Assembly: GCA_002687815.1 (NCBI GenBank)
Contig: NZBH01000006.1
Coordinates: 1-38,468, forward strand
Source of the DNA: an archaeon
GTDB taxonomy: Archaea > Nanobdellota > Nanobdellia > SCGC-AAA011-G17 > GCA-2687815
Direction of reading: 5' to 3'
Length of the DNA: 38,468 nt
The first letter of the stretch is position 1, and every line of letters starts with the position of its first letter. Positions 4,026-31,392 of the stretch are shown here, piece by piece. The translations under genes were made by a program, and so were the position numbers. Under the pieces are notes generated by a model. That model searched no databases. It saw only the letters and a program-made list of their open reading frames with translations, and was not told the DNA's origin.

Positions 4026-4988
4026 CTAATTAAGTAGTTTTTTTATTTTTGGAAGGGCTTTTTCTGTTGCTTTTTCACCCTGTTTTATAAGGTATTCTAT
4101 TTTATCAAAATCAAATATACCAACACCTTTTAATCTTGGTTTTATCATAACATCTGCTTTTCTATTTTCTAAGGATAATCTTCTTACTTCACGACTCATG
4201 ACATAAACAGAATCCATCATAATTTTAAGAATATCTGGAGGATTAAATTTTTTATGACCAAGAAATTTTTTAATTCTTTTTGGTTTTAAAAGCCATTTCA
4301 ATAAAAAAGAAAGTTTCATTTTCTTTTTATCCATATAATTATTAAAACTGTCTATTTCCATTTCAATAAAAGTATCTTTAATTTCTGAAGCAAAACTGCC
4401 TTTTTTTGGTTTTGGTTTAGGCAAATCTTTTGGATGTTTCATCTCCATTCCTGCAGCACTTACATCACTTCCAATAATTTTACTACATTCCATTTTTTCT
4501 ACTGCATCTATTGGAATTGGATCTACCAAGCCACCATCTACATATACATATTTGCCAATTTTAATTGGAGAGAAAACTACTGGATAAGAAATACTTGCTC
4601 TAAGAGCTTTAGATACAGAACCAGAATCAAAAATTCTTCTTTTTCCTGTAGTAAGATTAGTTGCTATGGCAGCAAATGGTTTTTTTAATTCGCTAAATTG
4701 TTTATTCCCAATTATATTATTAAAAAAATTTTCAATTTTTTTACCATCTACAAGTCCTTTTTTGGGAAGAATAAAATCAAATAGATTTTTATATTTAGTA
4801 TCATATGTTATTGATTCAATTTTACTTGCTTTAAATCCAGATGCATAAAATGCACCAACTACAGAACCCATACTTGTTCCTGCAACACAATTAATTGGAA
4901 TTTTATTTCTTTCTAAAACTTTAAGGACACCTATGTGAGCAATTCCTCTTGCAAAACCACCACTTAAAGCTAATCCGATTTTTTTCAT
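4026..4988 (-). CDS. Patatin-like phospholipase
   Basis: Oxyanion motif GGFARG, nucleophile elbow GTSMG (GxSxG), catalytic Asp motif VDGGLVDPIP. The start overlaps the enolase stop (ATGA). Confidence 0.85.
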   Translation of the reverse strand: MKKIGLALSGGFARGIAHIGVLKVLERNKIPINCVAGTSMGSVVGAFYASGFKASKIESITYDTKYKNLFDFILPKKGLVDGKKIENFFNNIIGNKQFSELKKPFAAIATNLTTGKRRIFDSGSVSKALRASISYPVVFSPIKIGKYVYVDGGLVDPIPIDAVEKMECSKIIGSDVSAAGMEMKHPKDLPKPKPKKGSFASEIKDTFIEMEIDSFNNYMDKKKMKLSFLLKWLLKPKRIKKFLGHKKFNPPDILKIMMDSVYVMSREVRRLSLENRKADVMIKPRLKGVGIFDFDKIEYLIKQGEKATEKALPKIKKLLN

Positions 4989-6121
4989 TTTATTTTTCTT
5001 TCTATTTTAATAAGTTCATTTATTTTGGCTTGTCTTTCCTTGCCATAAATACCACACTTAATTAATGGAATATTCCAAGCAACAGCCAAGTGACTTATTG
5101 TAGCATCTAAAGTTTCTCCAGAACGATGTGAAATAACAGGAACAATATCTTTTCTTTTAGCAAAATCAACTACTTTTTTTGTTTCAATTAAACTTCCTAT
5201 TTGATTTGGTTTTATTATAACAGAATTTATAGAATTACCAGCTCTTTTTAATCTCTTAAGATTTGTACAAATTAAATCATCACCACAAATTAAAACATCT
5301 TTTTTTAGTTTCTTAAAACTATTAAAATCAGTTTCTTCAAAAGGATCTTCTACATAAACAAGATTATAATCATTAATTAAACCAAAAATAAATTCAAATT
5401 GTTCTTTTTTACTTAAAATTTGATTTCTATAAACGTATTTTTCTCCATCCCATAATTGAGAAGCAGCAAAGTCGATTCCAACTCTAACTTTTATTCCTGT
5501 TCTTCTTGTAAATTTTTTTATTGTTTTATTTAAAATCCCAAGGACTTCTAAATTTTCAAGATTAGGTGCCCAAGCTCCTTCATCTGTTTTCTGATTATTA
5601 AATGTTTTATCTGCTCTTTTTAATTTTCCTCTTAATTTTTTATAAATTTTCCAATTAATTAAAGCAGCCTTAGCAAAAGAATCTGTTTTTGGTAATAATA
5701 AGAATTCTTGTATGTCAATTATGTTTCCAGCATGAAGTCCACCACCAACACAATTTCCCAAAGGTCTTGGAATTTCTTTGGCTTTTGGATTCAGAAATTT
5801 CCATGGTTTTCCTTTTGATAATATTTTTAGAATAGCAAATTCCAATGCAATTGTTGTATTTCCACCAAGGTTATATTTTTCTACTTTTTTTAAATCATTA
5901 AAATTATTTATCTTTATATTTTTAAAATCTACTTTACTTAATTTTTTGATTGCTTCATCAACACTATTTTTAGGAAATGCTTTAACTTCAAATTTTCCTT
6001 TAGAAACTCCAGATGGGGCAGATGCTATCCCTGTACCTTTATTAGAACGAACTTTAACTTCAATAGTTTCTTTTTTTCTAGAATTAAAGATCTTTCTAGC
6101 TGTAACATCTCTTATTTCCAT
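4985..6121 (-). CDS. eno: Enolase (phosphopyruvate hydratase), unusually short form
   Basis: 378 aa. Motifs seen: SGVSKG..E (N-terminal loop), GGGLHAG, TDEGAWAPN, IDFAAS, VEDPFEETD, CGDDLICTN, IKPNQIGS, SHRSGET, LIKCG. Confidence 0.85.
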   Translation of the reverse strand: MEIRDVTARKIFNSRKKETIEVKVRSNKGTGIASAPSGVSKGKFEVKAFPKNSVDEAIKKLSKVDFKNIKINNFNDLKKVEKYNLGGNTTIALEFAILKILSKGKPWKFLNPKAKEIPRPLGNCVGGGLHAGNIIDIQEFLLLPKTDSFAKAALINWKIYKKLRGKLKRADKTFNNQKTDEGAWAPNLENLEVLGILNKTIKKFTRRTGIKVRVGIDFAASQLWDGEKYVYRNQILSKKEQFEFIFGLINDYNLVYVEDPFEETDFNSFKKLKKDVLICGDDLICTNLKRLKRAGNSINSVIIKPNQIGSLIETKKVVDFAKRKDIVPVISHRSGETLDATISHLAVAWNIPLIKCGIYGKERQAKINELIKIERKIK

Positions 6122-18969: not shown

Positions 18970-19063
18970 TGCGCCAGGCGGGAATCGAACCCGCACCACA
19001 AACTTTTTGCTTTTCTTAAAAATTTCTTGGCAAGCTTGTATTGTACCATTCAACCACTAGCGC
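18970..19063 (-). tRNA. tRNA-Gly (anticodon GCC) with a ~23-nt canonical-position intron
   Basis: Hand fold: GCGCTAG/TG/GTTG-AATGGTA-CAAT/A/CAAGC-TTGCCA[intron AGAAATTTTTAAGAAAAGCAAAA, ~19005..19027]A-GTTTG/TGGT/GCGGG-TTCGATT-CCCGC/CTGGCGC/A. CCA is not encoded. Confidence 0.85.
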
Positions 19064-25247: not shown

Positions 25248-25874
25248 ATGAATAGAGAAAATAAAGAAAGAAATTCAACATTGCAAGATTTAGTTGATTT
25301 TACAAAGATTTCTGTAGCTACTGATGCAGAAAACCCATTATATGTTAATTATGCTTTTCAAGATCATTTAGAAACTTTAGATAATTTAGAATACGGAGAA
25401 GCAATAAAAAGAGAAGTAGAACCAGTAATTAAAGCATTAAAGAATGATATTCAAAGAGAAGGTAAAATTCCAGAATGGGCAAGTAGACAAGGTGGATTTT
25501 TAGAAAATTATAAAAGATTACATGCAACTATCTTAAATCAAGCCCAAATAGCTGATTTAATAAATGCAGCTAATGTAGTTGGTTATGATCCGGCAGATTT
25601 TTCAAATATAGTAGATCCAACTGAAGAATATGGTAGAATAGCTGGAGATATCCAAGAAATATCAAAGAGAGAAGCAATAGCTAGAATAAATGGTGAAAAC
25701 TTAACATTAAATGATGAAGAAAAAAGAATTAAAGATAAAGGAATAGCAGTTAAAGTATTACAAGAAATGACAAATAAAGCTATAATCTTCGGATTTGATA
25801 CTGAATACCATGATGATGTCTTGGATAGTATTAACGAAAAATACGCACCACAAGAAAATCAAGAATCAGCTTAA
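25248..25874 (+). CDS. Hypothetical protein
   Basis: 208 aa. SD GAGGT lies upstream. No recognisable motif. The 3' end overlaps the convergent NTase gene by 4 nt. Confidence 0.55.
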   Translation: MNRENKERNSTLQDLVDFTKISVATDAENPLYVNYAFQDHLETLDNLEYGEAIKREVEPVIKALKNDIQREGKIPEWASRQGGFLENYKRLHATILNQAQIADLINAANVVGYDPADFSNIVDPTEEYGRIAGDIQEISKREAIARINGENLTLNDEEKRIKDKGIAVKVLQEMTNKAIIFGFDTEYHDDVLDSINEKYAPQENQESA

Positions 25875-26677
25875 GTTTTTTTTAATTTAATTATTTTCTT
25901 ATTTTTTAATAAAATGTCAGTAATATCTGTCATTTTATCTACAAACATATTGGCAATTTTATCATAGTAATCTATTTTTTTACCAGCAATTCTAGTAATG
26001 TTTCCATGCGTAACCGATTTAGATAAATCATACATTGTTACATACCAATTAATATATTTTCTTCCAAGTCTAATCCCTCTTGTTTTTATTAACATATCTG
26101 GAACATGTTCTGGACTTGGGGGAGTTTTTCCAGCAGCCATTAAAGCAGCATGAGCAGAATCTACCATTGCCCAATATAATCCTTCAATAGCACTTAGAAC
26201 ATTAAACCTAGATCTTGATAAATGAACAGGTGCTCTTCTCAAAGAAGTGTATACTGATTCAGCAGTTGGTTTTATTTTTCCTCTTGCTAATAAAACTTTC
26301 AAAGGCTCAAAGAAACCACCAAAATCAATTAAAACTTGTCCATATCTTAAAACATTAGTAGCTACTGGATCACCAGACATTACTTCTTGTAAAAACGCTC
26401 CAAGAGTTACTGTATTAATATGAATTTCTTTAGGGTATTTTTGCCTTGCTACTATTTTACCAAGTTCTTCTCTATACCAAGCAATTAATTCTTGATCCCA
26501 ATCAACAGAACAATTATCTATAATAACTATTATGTCTATATCACTTTGCTTTTTAGCAGTCTGTTTTGGAACAGAACCAAATAAAGCAATAGATTTTATT
26601 AATTTGTTAAATTTTTTATAAACTTTTAATGCAAAATCATAAGCAATATCGTAATCTTTTTGAAGTTTTTTAACCAA
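25871..26677 (-). CDS. Nucleotidyltransferase-domain protein (KNTase-like: NTase plus helical C-domain), paralog of 20108..21922
   Basis: 268 aa. TTG start with SD GAGGTGG (26684..26690, 6-nt spacer). NTase motif GSVPKQTAKKQSDIDIIVIIDN. Block PVATNVLRYGQVLIDFGGFFEP..LLARGKIKPTAES...LYWAMVDSAHAALMAAGKTPPSPEH. Confidence 0.7.
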   Translation of the reverse strand: MVKKLQKDYDIAYDFALKVYKKFNKLIKSIALFGSVPKQTAKKQSDIDIIVIIDNCSVDWDQELIAWYREELGKIVARQKYPKEIHINTVTLGAFLQEVMSGDPVATNVLRYGQVLIDFGGFFEPLKVLLARGKIKPTAESVYTSLRRAPVHLSRSRFNVLSAIEGLYWAMVDSAHAALMAAGKTPPSPEHVPDMLIKTRGIRLGRKYINWYVTMYDLSKSVTHGNITRIAGKKIDYYDKIANMFVDKMTDITDILLKNKKIIKLKKT

Positions 26678-26719: not shown

Positions 26720-28639
26720 TTAATATTCCGTTTCGCTTCCAGCACTAGCAGCAAATCTTCCTTTCTCTGGAGAACCTGCTTGTCCTCCTAACTCTTGGGG
26801 TACTGTTGAAAATCCAGCACCATAAAGATCAAAGTGTTGTTTTGGTAAAATTTCTCCATAACCCATATAATATCTTCCAAAAGTATCTCTTATTTCAGAC
26901 CAGTAAGGTGCAGCATCTATTGAATATAATGGAGAGCCCATTGCTTCTAAAATATAAGGTTGAGGGCTTGTTTCAAAAAATCTTGGAAATCCTCCTGCTT
27001 CCATTATGGCTTTTCCAGAATAACCTCTTTTTTCTAATTCCTTCATAATTTCCTTTACAGGAACATTTCCCATACCCGGAGGCAAATGTGAATCTTGATA
27101 ACCAAAATTATCTGTCGTATGAACATGTTTTACAACTTTTGATATTTTTTTAGTTTCTTCTAAAATATCTTTATCAGAATAACCATACTTCCTTAACATA
27201 TTTATGTGGCCCATATCCCACGTAGCCCCAATTAATTTTTCAGCAACTTTTTCTGCTTGGCGTTTAGAAATATTTTTTTCTTTAGACAATCTTTCTGCAA
27301 ATCTATTTCTACTATCTTCTATAACTTTTCTCAAGGATTCAGCTCTTGAAAGTGGCATTTCCGGATAGACATTTTCTAAAGAAATTATTGGTGTTTTATC
27401 ACCATATTTTTTATAAGAAGTAAAAGCGGCATTTGCTATTGTCTCTGATCCTTTATCAGCTGCAAAATCATCTGCTGGTTTCCATAATTGTGGAGCAGGC
27501 ATATTTCCAATATCTTTAATCATATTTTCAGTTTGCTCATTATATCTAGGTATTAATCGATCTTGATAAAGATCATTATATTTTTTAGCTAATAAGGGGT
27601 CTCTAGTCTTTTTGTAAGCATCTCCAACTTTTTTTATTTGATTTTCAACTTTCTCAATTTCAGAATTTGTTCTTTTAAAATTTCCCAACAATTGTTTATA
27701 TGTTGTTTCTTTATATCTCTTATAATCATCACTTTCTGGGTCAGAAAATCTCTCAAATTTATTGTGAAGTTCTTCAAAACCAGATCTCATATTTGCATTA
27801 AGTTCATCAATATGATTTTGTAATGCACTTATATTTCTATTATTTTGATCATATTCTTGTTTTTCTCTCTCACTCATTGGAAGATTTCTAGTAGCCCTTT
27901 CTAAATATGCTGCATTTTGAGCCCTTATCCTTGTTTGTCTTTCTCTTACTTCATCTAAATTTTTCTCAAAAGACATTATCCTCAATTTTTCTTGGTCCCA
28001 TTCTGTTCGATTTAAACTTCTTAACCTTCTTTCAGGGGTCCATATAACTGGTCCTTTTTCTCCCAAATATTTTTTTTCTTCATATTTTAAAACTTGAATT
28101 TGTCCAGTATCTTGGTTTACTACACCCATTGCTCTTTTTTGTAATGCTTTTCTTGCTTCTTCTTTATTCATTTTAGATTGTTTTACTAAAGCTGCAATAC
28201 TTTCATCACTAATTTCTTTTCTCCATTCAGCTATAGGGATTGTTCCAGAATGCAAAGTTATTGGAGCTCTTCCAGTAGGATCTAATTTATGACCTCTATC
28301 AATTACAGATTCAATATTTTTTTCAGAAGTTAAACGTTGAGCTTCACTCCAACCTTGTTGAGACAATCCAGCAATATCTATACCTGGACCATGAATTGAT
28401 GCTTCTGCTCCAGTTAATTTTCCAAGCCTCTTCATTTCTTCAAAATGGGGCTCGGGAATTGATTCAAATACTTCAGGACTTACAGAACCAACTTCAACAT
28501 TTTTTACACCTTCATTTAATCTGGTACCCATTTCTTTAATTTGGTTAGCAGTTTGAGGACTAGTCGGGGCACCTATTTTTGAAGCAGAAAGATAGTATCT
28601 TGAATCCATTGCAGATTCATGATTTTCATGAATTTCCAT
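26720..28639 (-). CDS. Xylose-isomerase / AP-endonuclease-2-like TIM-barrel protein interrupted by a large charged helical insertion
   Basis: 639 aa. Barrel motifs are split: VKNVEVGS, EASIHGP and ITLHSG (aa ~45-132), then after ~280 aa IISLENV, GATWDMGH, VKHVHTTDNFGYQDSHLPPGMGNVP and KAIMEAG (aa ~418-548). SD GAGGTG sits inside the upstream gene, with a 1-nt stop/start overlap (TAATG). Confidence 0.6.
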   Translation of the reverse strand: MEIHENHESAMDSRYYLSASKIGAPTSPQTANQIKEMGTRLNEGVKNVEVGSVSPEVFESIPEPHFEEMKRLGKLTGAEASIHGPGIDIAGLSQQGWSEAQRLTSEKNIESVIDRGHKLDPTGRAPITLHSGTIPIAEWRKEISDESIAALVKQSKMNKEEARKALQKRAMGVVNQDTGQIQVLKYEEKKYLGEKGPVIWTPERRLRSLNRTEWDQEKLRIMSFEKNLDEVRERQTRIRAQNAAYLERATRNLPMSEREKQEYDQNNRNISALQNHIDELNANMRSGFEELHNKFERFSDPESDDYKRYKETTYKQLLGNFKRTNSEIEKVENQIKKVGDAYKKTRDPLLAKKYNDLYQDRLIPRYNEQTENMIKDIGNMPAPQLWKPADDFAADKGSETIANAAFTSYKKYGDKTPIISLENVYPEMPLSRAESLRKVIEDSRNRFAERLSKEKNISKRQAEKVAEKLIGATWDMGHINMLRKYGYSDKDILEETKKISKVVKHVHTTDNFGYQDSHLPPGMGNVPVKEIMKELEKRGYSGKAIMEAGGFPRFFETSPQPYILEAMGSPLYSIDAAPYWSEIRDTFGRYYMGYGEILPKQHFDLYGAGFSTVPQELGGQAGSPEKGRFAASAGSETEY

Positions 28640-29268
28640 TATTTCACCTCAACTTTTTTTAAATTGTATTTTTTATTATCTTTACTTTCATTTAAAATAT
28701 CATTAACATCTACAGCTTGTGTATTTGATTTATAGTTTTTAAATGTTTCTCCATTTTCTACTGCATTAAAATATCTATCTGTAACTTCTGAAGGAGCATT
28801 TCCTAAATATTTACTAATTTCTCTTTTTTCATCCATTATTTCTTGATGTGTAGAACTATGTAATAATCCACTTCCACTTAGATTTTTTCTAATACCATTA
28901 ATAACTGGACTTTCACCATTCCCACTTTTATATAAAATTGCTGGAGCTGTAGAATATTGTACTTGTCCATTTTCTTGTCTAACTTCGGTATTATCAATTG
29001 TTTTTTCTAAATCAGAAATTCCTCTTCTTAAAACAGGCTCTTTTATTTCATATTTTGGTGCTTCCATTTCTGAACTGCCTAAATTAATTCTTGAAGAAGG
29101 TCCTTCAATTTCAGTTTCTAAATTTTGTAAAGTTTCAATTAATTCTTTAATTTCTTGTATTAATTCCTTATCTTTTAATGTTTTTAATAAAGATTCAAGA
29201 TAGTTCACTCTATCTTTATCTGTCCTTAATTTCTTTAATTCATTCTTGATATCTTCTATCTTCACCAT
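28639..29268 (-). CDS. Hypothetical protein, middle gene of the coupled operon
   Basis: 209 aa. N-terminal Lys/Glu helical segment, then a Ser/Gly/Asn-rich, probably disordered region. 7-nt overlap with the upstream gene (ATGGTGA). Confidence 0.55.
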   Translation of the reverse strand: MVKIEDIKNELKKLRTDKDRVNYLESLLKTLKDKELIQEIKELIETLQNLETEIEGPSSRINLGSSEMEAPKYEIKEPVLRRGISDLEKTIDNTEVRQENGQVQYSTAPAILYKSGNGESPVINGIRKNLSGSGLLHSSTHQEIMDEKREISKYLGNAPSEVTDRYFNAVENGETFKNYKSNTQAVDVNDILNESKDNKKYNLKKVEVK

Positions 29269-30701
29269 GTAAACATTTTGTGAGCCTTCTTATAAATTGT
29301 ATACAATGCACTGCCTCTCATCTTCGCATCAGATATTGCTTTTTTCTTTAATTCCTTTTCTTTATAAGGTTCTGAAGGCGCACCTTTAACTGCTTCAAAA
29401 GAAGATTTCATGAATTTAAAAGCGTTTCCTATCGGGGAAACCATATCTCTAAAACCCCCTGCAAAAGAAATAGCACTTGGTTTTTTTTCCTCCGTTTTTT
29501 CTTCTTTTTCTTGTTTTAAATAATATTCAATGTCTTCTTTTAACTCTGTTAATGGAGTTCCAACCATTTCTTCTATTAAATCAAGACCATTATACAACTC
29601 TTGTTGTTTTAATATTTCTAAATCTTTATCTGTTAATGCATAAGCTCTAATTCTCATTTCAACTCTGCCTTGTTGGACATAATGCATACCAGCTTGTGTT
29701 CTTGCAGCTTCAGGAACTGTTCTAAATTTCAAAGTTGTTTCAACACAGGAAAAATATTCTTTTCCATTTACTTTACCAACAGATTTTTTACCAAATAAAA
29801 CTAATTCCATAATCATATTGCTAAAAGCAGTAACTACTTCTGGACTTCCAAAATCTTTCATTCCAAGTTTTTGGGCTGCCTTTAAGTAAGGTTTTACCCA
29901 AGAAGAATATAATTTTAGAGAAGCTAATTGTGATTTAACATAAGATCTTTCAATTTTAAATCTTTGATTTAATTCCTTTTCACTTCTACTTTTCCATTCT
30001 AAAAATTCTTGAATTCTTGCTTTTAATATTCTCTTTACCCTTTCATTTAAATCAATCCCACGAACATCTTTTTCATCCTTCGCTATCATAAAAGCATCTC
30101 TCAAAGTTACAAATTGTAATTGCTGTGCTAACATATTTATTGCTCCTCTACCTCGTTTAATGTCTACTTGATCCATCCAAATTTGTTTTAAGCCGAGTAA
30201 AGCTGCATCAGCTTCATCTTTATTTTTAGAATGAGATTTTTTATAAGTTTCAAGTCTAACTTCAAATTCTTTTAAATCATAAAGTAAATTAATTAAACTT
30301 CTAATAACAGTATTGATAGTCTGCATCATCTTCATTGCTTGTTCTTGCATTCTTGTTGCTTTCATTCCCATCTCAGAAAAAAAAGCACCACCAACAGAAG
30401 CTTCATAATCATCACCAGTTTTAGAAACATCTAAATCAACACCATTATATTTGCCTTTCATAAAATCAAGAATCCAAAAATATATTGGTTCAAGACCCTC
30501 TCCAAAAGAATCATAAATCAGTGTAAAATGAATGTCTTCCTTACTTACATCTGTCTTTATTAATGCTTTTTTCTTTATTTCATCAATTAAGAATGGCCTA
30601 ATTTCTGACTTAAGAGAAGGATTCTTTTCTAATTGTTCTTTTAGAAAAGCTATTTTATCAGGCTCTTTTTCTAATTTCTTTTTTACTTCAGCAATATCCA
30701 T
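29262..30701 (-). CDS. Hypothetical protein, first gene of the coupled operon, predicted mainly helical
   Basis: 479 aa. No P-loop, metal or catalytic motif that I recognise. Long amphipathic helical stretches (MQEQAMKMMQTINTVIRSLINLLYDLKEFEVRLETY; SQLASLKLYSSWVKPYLKAAQKLG). Confidence 0.6.
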   Translation of the reverse strand: MDIAEVKKKLEKEPDKIAFLKEQLEKNPSLKSEIRPFLIDEIKKKALIKTDVSKEDIHFTLIYDSFGEGLEPIYFWILDFMKGKYNGVDLDVSKTGDDYEASVGGAFFSEMGMKATRMQEQAMKMMQTINTVIRSLINLLYDLKEFEVRLETYKKSHSKNKDEADAALLGLKQIWMDQVDIKRGRGAINMLAQQLQFVTLRDAFMIAKDEKDVRGIDLNERVKRILKARIQEFLEWKSRSEKELNQRFKIERSYVKSQLASLKLYSSWVKPYLKAAQKLGMKDFGSPEVVTAFSNMIMELVLFGKKSVGKVNGKEYFSCVETTLKFRTVPEAARTQAGMHYVQQGRVEMRIRAYALTDKDLEILKQQELYNGLDLIEEMVGTPLTELKEDIEYYLKQEKEEKTEEKKPSAISFAGGFRDMVSPIGNAFKFMKSSFEAVKGAPSEPYKEKELKKKAISDAKMRGSALYTIYKKAHKMFTW

Positions 30702-30742
30702 ACAAAAAATACTTAAGTTTTGAAATTTTTAAATGTTTTGTT

Positions 30743-31132
30743 ATGAAGAGATTTTTAATTCCTATTATAATAGTTTTTTTTGATCAATTAACAAAGTTTT
30801 TATCTAAAGATAAACATTTTTTTATAGTAAATTATCAAGAAAATTATGGAGCTGCTTTTAGCATACTCCAAGGACAATTACTAATATTTATTGCAGTAGC
30901 AATCCTTGTTATTTTTTTAATATTTTTTTATTATAATAAAGTAAAATATAAAATTGGATTATTGTTTATACTTGGTGGAACTATTGGAAATTTAATTGAT
31001 AGAATTTTTTTGGGACTTGTTCGTGACTTTATTGATCTAAAAATTTGGCCTGTTTTTAATATAGCTGACTCTGCTAATGTAATTGGTGCTGCTATTTTAG
31101 CTTATTACTTAATTAAAACCAAAAATAAGTAA
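30743..31132 (+). CDS. lspA: Lipoprotein signal peptidase (signal peptidase II), bacterial type, short form
   Basis: 129 aa, 4 predicted TM helices. Motifs DQLTK, NYGAAFS, GGTIGNLIDR, FNIADSANVIGA. Both catalytic Asp positions are present. Confidence 0.8.
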   Translation: MKRFLIPIIIVFFDQLTKFLSKDKHFFIVNYQENYGAAFSILQGQLLIFIAVAILVIFLIFFYYNKVKYKIGLLFILGGTIGNLIDRIFLGLVRDFIDLKIWPVFNIADSANVIGAAILAYYLIKTKNK

Positions 31133-31134
31133 AA

Positions 31135-31392
31135 TCAAAGATTTTTGATATATTTATCTGTAGCTACAACTGCTAAAGTAGTAACTGCTGCCGTAAGTGC
31201 AAAAATTGCTATAGGTCCACCATATTTTACAGCTTCTGCTAAGAAGTTACCATAATCGCTTTGTAATTGAGAAATATCCTTATTTAAAGAAGCATATAGG
31301 TCTAAAGCTTCTGGAATTCCTGCTTTTGTACATGCTGCTCCTACAATAGAGTCTCCAACAATTCTTATTAAATTTTTTGCCATTTTAATCAA
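31135..31392 (-). CDS. Hypothetical small protein with a C-terminal hydrophobic helix
   Basis: 85-aa ORF filling the gap. GGPIAIFALTAAVTTLAVVA is a likely TM helix. No recognisable family. Confidence 0.4.
   Translation of the reverse strand: MIKMAKNLIRIVGDSIVGAACTKAGIPEALDLYASLNKDISQLQSDYGNFLAEAVKYGGPIAIFALTAAVTTLAVVATDKYIKNL

Follow-up and report, generated by a model that had tools for sequence, protein, structure and literature searches.

A deeply conserved DPANN operon encoding a predicted endonuclease-IV-type metalloenzyme next to LspA or AliA

Introduction

The described systems closest to the locus reported here belong to lipoprotein biogenesis, namely Lgt-LspA-Lnt and AliA/AliB, and to the barrel enzymes related to endonuclease IV (Endo IV). 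AliA and AliB are recent additions and the first archaeal lipoprotein-biogenesis enzymes, and a firm identification of the archaeal lipoprotein signal peptidase is still lacking (PMC12462473, PMC13631571). Thioether-linked archaeol is joined to lipoproteins, the proteins that carry a lipobox, mainly by AliA, and according to the AliA papers no archaeal Lgt or Lsp homologs were known (PMC12462473, PMC13631571). The published neighbours of AliA are inositol monophosphatase-family enzymes, a metal-binding protein, GldA and SpoIIM, not the cluster described below (PMC12462473). Here, we analyze a 38,468-nt stretch of archaeal DNA (contig NZBH01000006.1, positions 1 to 38,468, of assembly GCA_002687815.1; hereafter the window), in which three genes, termed A, B and C, are followed by a nucleotidyltransferase (NTase) gene and lie beside a divergent lspA gene. 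We find that this operon is real, deeply conserved and undescribed, that C is predicted to be a metalloenzyme with an Endo-IV-type site, and that the membrane enzyme encoded next to A is LspA in many loci and AliA in a separate lineage.

Two types of barrel enzyme are relevant for comparison with C. Ketose epimerases need an E-D-H-E site alone. MJ1311 of Methanocaldococcus jannaschii (PDB 3WQO), a plain barrel of 293 aa, is titled 'D-tagatose 3-epimerase-like protein', of uncharacterised function, and is reported to have nine Endo-IV-type ligands but to lack a DNA-binding groove. The same protein is listed as the M. jannaschii Endo IV homolog (PMC2770678, Table 1).

DPANN archaea account for much of archaeal diversity; most of them have not been cultivated, and they rely on hosts to provide lipids and other building blocks. 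One study has shown that host lipids are recruited selectively, but offered no machinery for it (bioRxiv 10.1101/2023.12.06.570485). Castelle et al. reported 51 mostly unknown families that are specific to Pacearchaeota and Woesearchaeota (PMC8204110). In the literature searched, we found no description of the present cluster, nor of LspA in Woesearchaeota.

Results

The operon is conserved among DPANN archaea

Homologs of A are numerous, with more than 2437 members in a database clustered at 90% and 797 clusters at 50% identity, and relatives are present in at least 515 GTDB species-representative genomes. Every named record derives from a DPANN archaeon, mostly Woesearchaeota, Pacearchaeota, Nanoarchaeota or Nanoarchaeia; further members occur in Ca. 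Nanopusillus, and one partial sequence is labelled Aenigmarchaeota. The family splits into the window-type subfamily, a second subfamily (subfamily 2) that is 24-29% identical to the window type, and intermediate lineages. Gene order was counted by tblastn of the window proteins on 80 GTDB species loci, the number of evaluable loci differing per neighbour. C lies downstream of A within 1.7 kb in 56 of 63 evaluable loci and farther away in 2, the NTase gene adjoins C in 40 of 53 (farther in 9), and lspA is divergent from A within 800 nt in 40 of 57 (farther in 11). The order A-(B)-C-NTase is kept in most loci. The first-pass annotation of the window, made from the sequence alone, had asked whether the genes co-occur in this order in other genomes and whether the NTase gene belongs to the conserved neighbourhood. 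Both are the case, the order being retained across deep divergence, and it had mentioned lspA merely in passing, which turns out to be a conserved neighbour replaced by AliA in another lineage. Homologs are not scattered, and neither A nor B finds a family match.

Searches of IMG/VR viral contigs returned no relatives of A. The GC content of the window is about 28% and its composition is even across the cluster. A viral or mobile origin, which we had considered, was rejected on the absence of IMG/VR relatives and the even composition across the window. The A-B-C-NTase operon is vertically inherited and DPANN-specific. In Ca. Nanopusillus (L093, HIP66556.1), the A-C pair is kept and is followed by secY. 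The pair is accordingly found in Nanoarchaeales, relatives of Nanoarchaeum equitans, a group for which co-cultures exist, and the A family may be experimentally tractable there.

Within Woesearchaeales, conserved gene order extends beyond the operon and comprises MT203, phosphoenolpyruvate (PEP) synthase, glutaminyl-/glutamyl-tRNA synthetase (GlnRS/GluRS), a PUA-methyltransferase and an HhH-GPD protein. Upstream of lspA (for example, L003 1588..5146), we found GlnRS/GluRS in 28 loci, the PUA-methyltransferase in 47 and the HhH-GPD glycosylase in 27. All three are absent from the window, indicating that the window lineage has rearranged that side.

LspA and AliA flank the same operon in different lineages

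The lspA product matches Pfam Peptidase_A8 with 96.3 bits (cut-off 25) over profile positions 3-141 of 142 and falls marginally short of TIGR00077 (70.5 vs a cut-off of 73.95). Both Asp motifs, GNLIDR and FNIAD, can be read in it, and the protein is predicted to be a bacterial-type lipoprotein signal peptidase II residing in the membrane. A bacterial-type LspA is thus encoded in a woesearchaeal genome and kept in dozens of related species, which shows this enzyme to be widespread in Woesearchaeota.

The gene contexts of divergent A members, together with a metagenome scan seeded with these members, revealed a separate lineage in which AliA takes the position of lspA, in at least nine distinct loci. 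Here, AliA(-) and a small protein gene, S(-), are followed by A(+), an optional B, C(+) and NTase(+). The neighbour in locus L088 is a 258-aa DUF63/AliA_AliB protein (PF01889) matched at an E-value of 1.5e-53 over profile positions 2-269 of 269. The A proteins of this lineage are 31-57% identical to one member of it, P0423, and about 30% identical to the window A. B was found in the AliA lineage too, and homologs of MT203 or PPS were absent, so that the core shared with the window lineage comprises only LspA or AliA, (S), A, (B), C and NTase. As AliA and LspA stand beside A in lineages whose neighbourhoods otherwise differ, two unrelated enzymes of the same pathway flank the same operon. Subfamily 2 adds a further arrangement: in L092, lspA is followed by A, a small ORF and C, and in L089 and L090 lspA stands next to A alone. 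Among 42 evaluable metagenome loci, lspA was located beside A in 23, AliA in 8 and neither in 11. The flanking genes are authentic members of the known lipoprotein systems, whereas A, B, C and NTase, which are predicted to be soluble, are not homologous to any of Lgt, Lsp, Lnt, AliA and AliB, the link being purely genomic.

The small protein S is encoded between the membrane-enzyme gene and A in many related loci and is absent from the window. Its N-termini combine F/L with a Lys run (MGLFGLGKKK, MALFNFLKKKK, MSVFSLIKRLFSKK or MPVFSMAFLGIGKKR) and precede a low-complexity linker; the C-terminal part is a coiled coil. In the A variant P0498, an S-type N-terminus is fused to A itself.

C is predicted to carry a complete Endo-IV-type tri-metal site

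C matches the Pfam family PF01261 (AP_endonuc_2) with 42.7 bits (cut-off 31.1) over residues 463-548. The same family is carried by all listed C homologs except one, and source annotations name these homologs 'sugar phosphate isomerase/epimerase'. In the AlphaFold2 (AF2) model of C (predicted local distance difference test score, pLDDT, 81.4; predicted template-modelling score, pTM, 0.78), the protein adopts a (beta/alpha)8 barrel that would be interrupted between beta4 (126-130) and beta5 (418-422). The modelled insertion of ~290 aa (about residues 131-417) starts with a conserved beta-hairpin subdomain (~168-200) and continues with four ~45-residue helices (202-378); sequence conservation is low in the helical bundle and the linkers. 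The C-terminal tail of ~85 aa (556-639) is predicted to be disordered (pLDDT <50), yet contains many conserved Pro, Trp, Tyr, Phe and Gly residues and probably folds on a partner. With PF01261, the AF2 model and Foldseek in agreement, C is well described as what the first-pass annotation had recognised by eye, a split triosephosphate isomerase (TIM)-barrel enzyme with a huge insertion.

Foldseek related the model of C with a probability of 1.0 to ketose 3-epimerases (E 1e-5 to 1e-3, template-modelling (TM) score 0.65-0.72 normalised to target) and likewise to Endo IV (E ~2e-2, TM up to 0.64 normalised to target), in alignments of 550-600 columns that cover both barrel halves. The best overall superpositions are those with ketose 3-epimerases and sugar-phosphate epimerases (D-tagatose/D-psicose 3-epimerase, UlaE, IolE/IolI). 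However, identity to these enzymes is 8-9%, and the NCBIfam equivalogs reach 13-32 bits against cut-offs of 105-353, as seen for PRK09856 (32.5 vs 305), PsicseEpim (16.1 vs 300) and IolE (19.3 vs 290). Moreover, C has five extra conserved His/Asp ligands that ketose 3-epimerases do not need.

To compare C with Endo IV, we took E. coli nfo from NC_000913 and confirmed the nine zinc ligands of its product (H69, H109, E145, D179, H182, H216, D229, H231 and E261). Adding Nfo to an alignment of the TIM parts of C (MAFFT --add) placed eight of the nine on identical residues of C (H83, H130, D475, H478, H507, D516, H518 and E547). The ninth, E145, which is part of an E145-N146 pair, corresponds by strand position to the invariant E422-N423 of C at the end of beta5. 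Across 50 homologs, each of these nine residues of C is either invariant or conserved to at least 90%, and in the model strands beta3 to beta8 carry them at their C-terminal ends. Because C keeps the complete set, its alignment and model predict a xylose-isomerase-like TIM-barrel metalloenzyme with an Endo-IV-type nine-ligand tri-metal site, which goes beyond the E-D-H-E site of sugar epimerases. Nfo and C also share the PF01261 barrel, the equivalence of the ligand-bearing strands and the local motifs H-x7-G, HxG[ST], EN, DxxH and DxH..G.GN (Nfo structures, PDB 1QTW/1QUM). They differ in the large insertion of C and in overall similarity, which is insignificant: hhalign of the C TIM core against Nfo in local mode aligned the C-terminal half only (E 0.046, probability 1%). 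The nfo equivalog was not among the NCBIfam matches of C, and a PDB profile search retrieved no Endo IV chain at E<=1.

The only significant sequence relative of C in the PDB is MJ1311 (3wqo), detected by the C-terminal half with a profile E-value of 3.6e-11 and weakly by the N-terminal half. MJ1311 is also the top Foldseek match and shares the motifs HaP..D, H.G, D.GH, HvH..DN and D..HL..G.GN. In contrast to this plain barrel, C has the ~290-aa insertion, the conserved ~85-aa tail and an operon with A, B and NTase. C is an insertion-bearing new member of the AP_endonuc_2 superfamily, closest to MJ1311.

A and B match no described family

Searched with the window proteins, neither A nor B yielded a significant match in Pfam, NCBIfam, PADLOC or PHROGs, the returns being sub-threshold coiled-coil noise alone (e.g. 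RIN1, MLKL_N and EzrA). Scanning all 52 members of the A alignment against Pfam revealed no recurrent family, and against PDB sequences, used as single sequence and as profile, the best returns of A were noise (designed claudin, E 0.004; Sec4, E 0.008). Foldseek of the A model gave nothing at E<=0.001, the best matches being 1.2e-2 in the PDB and 2.9e-3 in BFVD with TM <0.2. The top-ranked, insignificant ones are CoxG/START/PYL helix-grip proteins and actin-capping protein (TM <0.2), which serve as a lead only. That A and B could be assigned to no family by eye therefore also holds for profile searches with both proteins and for structure searches with A.

The AF2 model of A, computed from 52 homologs, has a pLDDT of 72.9 and a pTM of 0.55. 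Its N-terminal part contains three helices, strands 58-65 and 91-103, and long helices (110-156, 161-183 and 220-278); the C-terminal part contains three ~20-residue strands (293-357), more helices, a disordered variable loop (402-443) and a conserved C-terminal helix. Besides the long helices, the model thus has a sheet of five long strands, and the earlier description of A as a helical scaffold does not hold. The net charge of A is +11 and no transmembrane segment is predicted, and the model depicts a soluble alpha/beta protein. In a comparison of 116 representatives drawn from every subfamily, conservation of at least 90% was seen for E71, Y74, K94, K172, D202, N219, W236, E243, W268, P271, Y272, G345 and K471. 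These positions are mostly aromatic or structural, with few charged ones, and appear to form no obvious catalytic set. A further conserved feature is the C-terminal motif Y..YKKAHGM.TW. Long A homologs, examined for domain fusions, showed only a zinc ribbon inserted in the variable loop and Pfam-negative N-terminal extensions. By these sequence criteria, we regard A as the founding member of an undescribed DPANN protein family.

B is poorly conserved in sequence. Its N-terminal helix is followed by a low-complexity region, and the C-terminal part carries a short basic K-Y/Y-K-R-K motif. Over its first ~45 residues, B is homologous to the first ~40 of A (hhalign probability 91%, E 1.2e-6; reversed control, E 0.05), the shared helix motif being I..IKK.L.K....K..FL...L. 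In most loci, the space between A and C is occupied by an ORF of the size of B, and the B hidden Markov model matched in 63 loci.

The NTase is the most conserved protein of the cluster

The NTase matches Pfam NTP_transf_2 (PF01909) with 33.4 bits (cut-off 21), and Polbeta as well. Its GS...DxD motif reads FGSVPKQTAKKQSDIDIIV, and the domain is followed by a C-terminal helical domain, for which the JGI name is 'predicted nucleotidyltransferase/UPF0332 family' (HEPN-like). The protein is very basic (net charge +16), has no predicted transmembrane segment and is the most conserved of the cluster, with 52-62% identity across loci as compared to 40-50% for A and 34-45% for C. The earlier assignment as a KNTase-like nucleotidyltransferase was right about the NTase domain, whereas the match to KNTase itself is insignificant (E 0.42). 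No HEPN match was obtained in Pfam at E<=1, and the MntA score of 26.3 bits is below the cut-off of 60. KNTase-like and MNT-HEPN proteins resemble the NTase in having a minimal N-terminal NTase domain with GS...DxD, about 260-280 aa and a C-terminal helical domain. The present NTase differs in that it has no toxin partner, is highly conserved in its lineage and usually stands in an operon with C; its neighbours are C and an unrelated 208-aa ORF, and no separate HEPN toxin gene adjoins it. Judged from its sequence, it is a new member of the Pol-beta-superfamily minimal nucleotidyltransferases.

Gene junctions and expression signals

Table 1. Features of the cluster in the window, with the AliA-lineage loci and examples of protein S from related loci (L-numbers)
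Feature	Position	Strand	Description	Source
Gene A	29262..30701	minus	479 aa	ORF list
Gene B	28639..29268	minus	209 aa	ORF list
Gene C	26720..28639	minus	639 aa	ORF list
NTase gene	25871..26677	minus	268 aa, TTG start	ORF list
lspA	30743..31132	plus	129 aa, divergent from A	ORF list
A/B junction	29262..29268	minus	ATGGTGA, 7-nt overlap; ATG of B within the final Thr-Trp-stop codons of A	
B/C junction	28637..28650	minus	GAGGTG Shine-Dalgarno motif 28650..28645, 5 nt, TAATG 28641..28637; stop and start share 1 base	
A-lspA intergenic region	30702..30742		41 nt, A/T-rich, divergent; ATTTAAAAAT/ATTTTTAAAT palindrome-like, ~30 nt upstream of the A ATG	
AliA-lineage loci			L088, L091, L094/95, L096, L098, L099, L100/101, L169; partial: L124, L137, L138	
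S in L001	7708..7941	minus		
S in L088	1061..1393	minus		
S in L091	7520..7930	minus		
S in L121	5039..5452	minus		
S in L167	1998..2414	minus		

The junctions (Table 1) read as the first-pass annotation had described them. The three minus-strand open reading frames (ORFs) are chained by overlaps of 7 nt and 1 nt, the GAGGTG Shine-Dalgarno (SD) motif for C is embedded in B, the NTase gene begins 42 nt downstream of C, and the divergent lspA gene is 41 nt away from A. The geometry of the A/B overlap is identical in 23 of 46 related loci and the A-B gap is at most 15 nt in 34 of them; this conservation exceeds chance, the geometry being kept because the C-terminal TW of A is conserved. SD-like motifs precede 15 of the 43 window genes, as compared to 7.6% of random 16-mers. 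C and the NTase gene have an SD, the latter its own AGAGGTGG before the TTG, and B and A have none, a pattern that fits translation of B by coupling and A as the first gene of the unit. A, B, C and NTase form a co-directional, translationally coupled operon. The three-gene unit proposed earlier is accordingly real and tightly coupled in the window, but not a fixed trio, as A directly abuts C, with B absent, in 9 of the 80 GTDB species-representative loci, so that some lineages dispense with B. The stoichiometric complex that the first-pass annotation read from this coupling is a possible consequence of it. The ATTTAAAAAT/ATTTTTAAAT stretch in the A-lspA intergenic region could be an archaeal TATA element shared by A and lspA. 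A scan for bacterial promoters and terminators gave counts at shuffle level, bacterial models being uninformative for an archaeon.

Discussion

As a system, the cluster fits no known kind, and A and B match nothing described. Whatever goes beyond a conserved operon that encodes an Endo-IV-type metalloenzyme and adjoins LspA or AliA is inference. Among the options raised by the first-pass annotation (structural, envelope-related or defence-like), an envelope-related role fits best and a defence-like one is unsupported; the interpretation narrows to envelope, lipoprotein or lipid-related functions, with nucleic-acid repair as the main alternative. We tentatively favour, as a possible rather than a probable reading, that A-B-C-NTase is a soluble module at the inner face of the membrane, tied to lipoprotein or membrane-lipid biogenesis. 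In such a module, A would be a non-catalytic platform or ligand-binding subunit, onto which B may dock via the shared N-terminal helix. Through the A/B platform, C, acting as a phosphoesterase, and in many cases also the NTase would be recruited to the vicinity of LspA or AliA at the membrane. There, C might hydrolyse phosphoester or phosphodiester bonds in lipid head groups or in lipid-donor by-products, for example glycerophosphate- or inositolphosphate-type head groups from scavenged host lipids, and the NTase could nucleotidylate a hydroxyl of the same substrate or product. This chemistry is the weakest part of the proposal. The divergent neighbours speak for it, LspA and AliA both being membrane enzymes of lipoprotein maturation. 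Hints of membrane association come from the sequences of the S N-termini with their F/L residues and Lys run, the P0498 fusion and the basic character of A and NTase. The reading also fits because Woesearchaeota are reported to be without geranylgeranylglyceryl phosphate (GGGP) and digeranylgeranylglyceryl phosphate (DGGGP) synthases and presumably rely on partners as a source of lipids (PMC8421398).

Several observations weigh against a lipid or lipoprotein function. The evidence connecting A, B, C and NTase with lipids or lipoproteins is purely genomic, and the four are predicted to be soluble, cytoplasmic proteins; Lgt- and Lsp-type chemistry, in contrast, proceeds within the membrane or on its outer face. 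The nearest relatives of C act on sugars or DNA, not on lipids, and the likeness of A to SRPBCC/START lipid-binding folds is insignificant (best E 0.012, TM <0.2). A lipobox search of the window proteins revealed no clear lipoprotein. A few loci have A without C, and 11 of the 42 metagenome loci have A without LspA or AliA. Given the order-wide synteny in Woesearchaeales, the adjacency of lspA alone is a weak argument, and it is the AliA lineage and subfamily 2 that carry the case. A more far-reaching version, which we consider unlikely, is that A-(B)-C-NTase together with S constitutes the cytoplasmic arm of a pathway of lipid salvage and lipoprotein biogenesis in those DPANN archaea that are incapable of lipid synthesis. 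A would then be a new lipid- or membrane-binding fold, C a phospholipase-C/D-like tri-metal phosphodiesterase remodelling the head groups of host lipids, and the NTase would re-activate the product, so that the lipid donor of AliA/LspA is supplied or recycled.

The main competing explanation, itself unlikely, places the operon in nucleic-acid end-processing or base-excision repair, with C as a divergent Endo IV (apurinic/apyrimidinic (AP) endonuclease or 3'-phosphodiesterase), the NTase extending ends and A and B as nucleic-acid-binding subunits. The nine retained tri-metal ligands of C, its Foldseek probability of 1.0 to Endo IV (TM up to 0.64) and the listing of MJ1311, its closest solved relative, as the M. 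jannaschii Endo IV homolog (PMC2770678) are what one would expect of such an enzyme, as is the strongly basic nature of NTase (+16) and A (+11). However, C does not match the NCBIfam Endo IV equivalog, Foldseek favours ketose 3-epimerases over Endo IV (1e-5 vs 2e-2), and the NTase combines a minimal domain with a helical domain and lacks the customary polymerase domains. In favour of repair, an HhH-GPD glycosylase is encoded a few kb upstream in 27 related loci, and other loci contain genes for DNA-alkylation repair or for a purine glycosylase, but the glycosylase genes are part of the order-wide synteny and absent from the window. A repair function also leaves S and the recurring LspA/AliA neighbour unexplained. 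A further reading is that C is an ordinary cytoplasmic isomerase, epimerase or dehydratase of sugars or sugar phosphates and that A, B and NTase are housekeeping genes unrelated to it, kept alongside solely because gene order in these small genomes is unusually stable. Here, the top Foldseek and NCBIfam similarities (D-tagatose/D-psicose 3-epimerases, UlaE, IolE/IolI and fructoselysine 3-epimerase) agree with the source annotation of C as 'sugar phosphate isomerase/epimerase', Woesearchaeales commonly keep long stretches of unrelated genes in the same order, and some genomes have A without C. We nevertheless judge this improbable, since the A-C pair persists at 24-30% A identity and in differing neighbourhoods, including Ca. 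Nanopusillus, the start/stop overlaps are conserved, C conserves five Endo-IV-type ligands in addition to E-D-H-E, and every NCBIfam equivalog score is far under its cut-off.

The abundance of long helices and coiled coils (A 110-156 and 220-278, the C insertion 202-378, and the termini of B and S) could instead point to a structural or cytoskeletal assembly acting in cell shape, division or host attachment, in which A, B, S and the C insertion are coiled-coil blocks and the site of C is secondary. Poor conservation of the helical bundle and linkers is typical of structural spacers, and FtsZ or SecY is encoded nearby in a few loci. Such an assembly seems quite improbable to us: the invariant residues of C, predicted to be catalytic, argue for an active enzyme, the FtsZ and SecY neighbours are sporadic, and no matches to ESCRT-III/PspA, tubulin, actin or CdvA folds were obtained, the CdvA match being coiled-coil noise (E 0.11). 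An anti-virus defence or toxin-antitoxin module built around an MNT-HEPN-like NTase is very improbable. The NTase weakly matches the MntA antitoxin, Hailong HalB, a CBASS cyclase and the PADLOC candidates PDC-M05A/PDC-S09, but these matches reflect the generic NTase core and do not reach the cut-offs of the families. Neither PADLOC nor PHROGs returned a match for A, B or C, the position of the cluster is fixed in at least 515 species, relatives are missing from the IMG/VR viral contigs, the composition of the window is even, and a separate HEPN toxin gene is lacking. As the PADLOC matches are confined to the NTase core, we rejected the defence reading, and with it that part of the earlier proposal.

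Returning to the favoured membrane-associated module, the near-universal and strongly conserved cluster offers a testable entry point into DPANN lipid handling and archaeal lipoprotein biogenesis. If the lipid-salvage version were true, it would be the first molecular machinery proposed for symbionts that process stolen lipids. Should the lipid link fail, A remains a large family without annotation, deserving of a Pfam entry and a solved structure.

Further observations in the window

Directly after lspA, an 85-aa ORF (31135..31392, minus strand) contains a weak near-lipobox (IVGAAC) and a C-terminal hydrophobic segment. It has a weak Slp-lipoprotein match in Pfam (E 0.0024) and is not conserved in related loci. 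Elsewhere in the window, a patatin-like phospholipase gene (4026..4988, minus strand) overlaps the start of the enolase gene (4985..6121, minus strand) by 4 nt; its product is a lipid-active enzyme in an organism thought to be incapable of lipid synthesis. Finally, ARAGORN reported a 94-nt tRNA with the four-base anticodon 'ccaa' at 18970..19063 (minus strand), directly adjoining tRNA-Val, which is probably an intron-containing archaeal tRNA.

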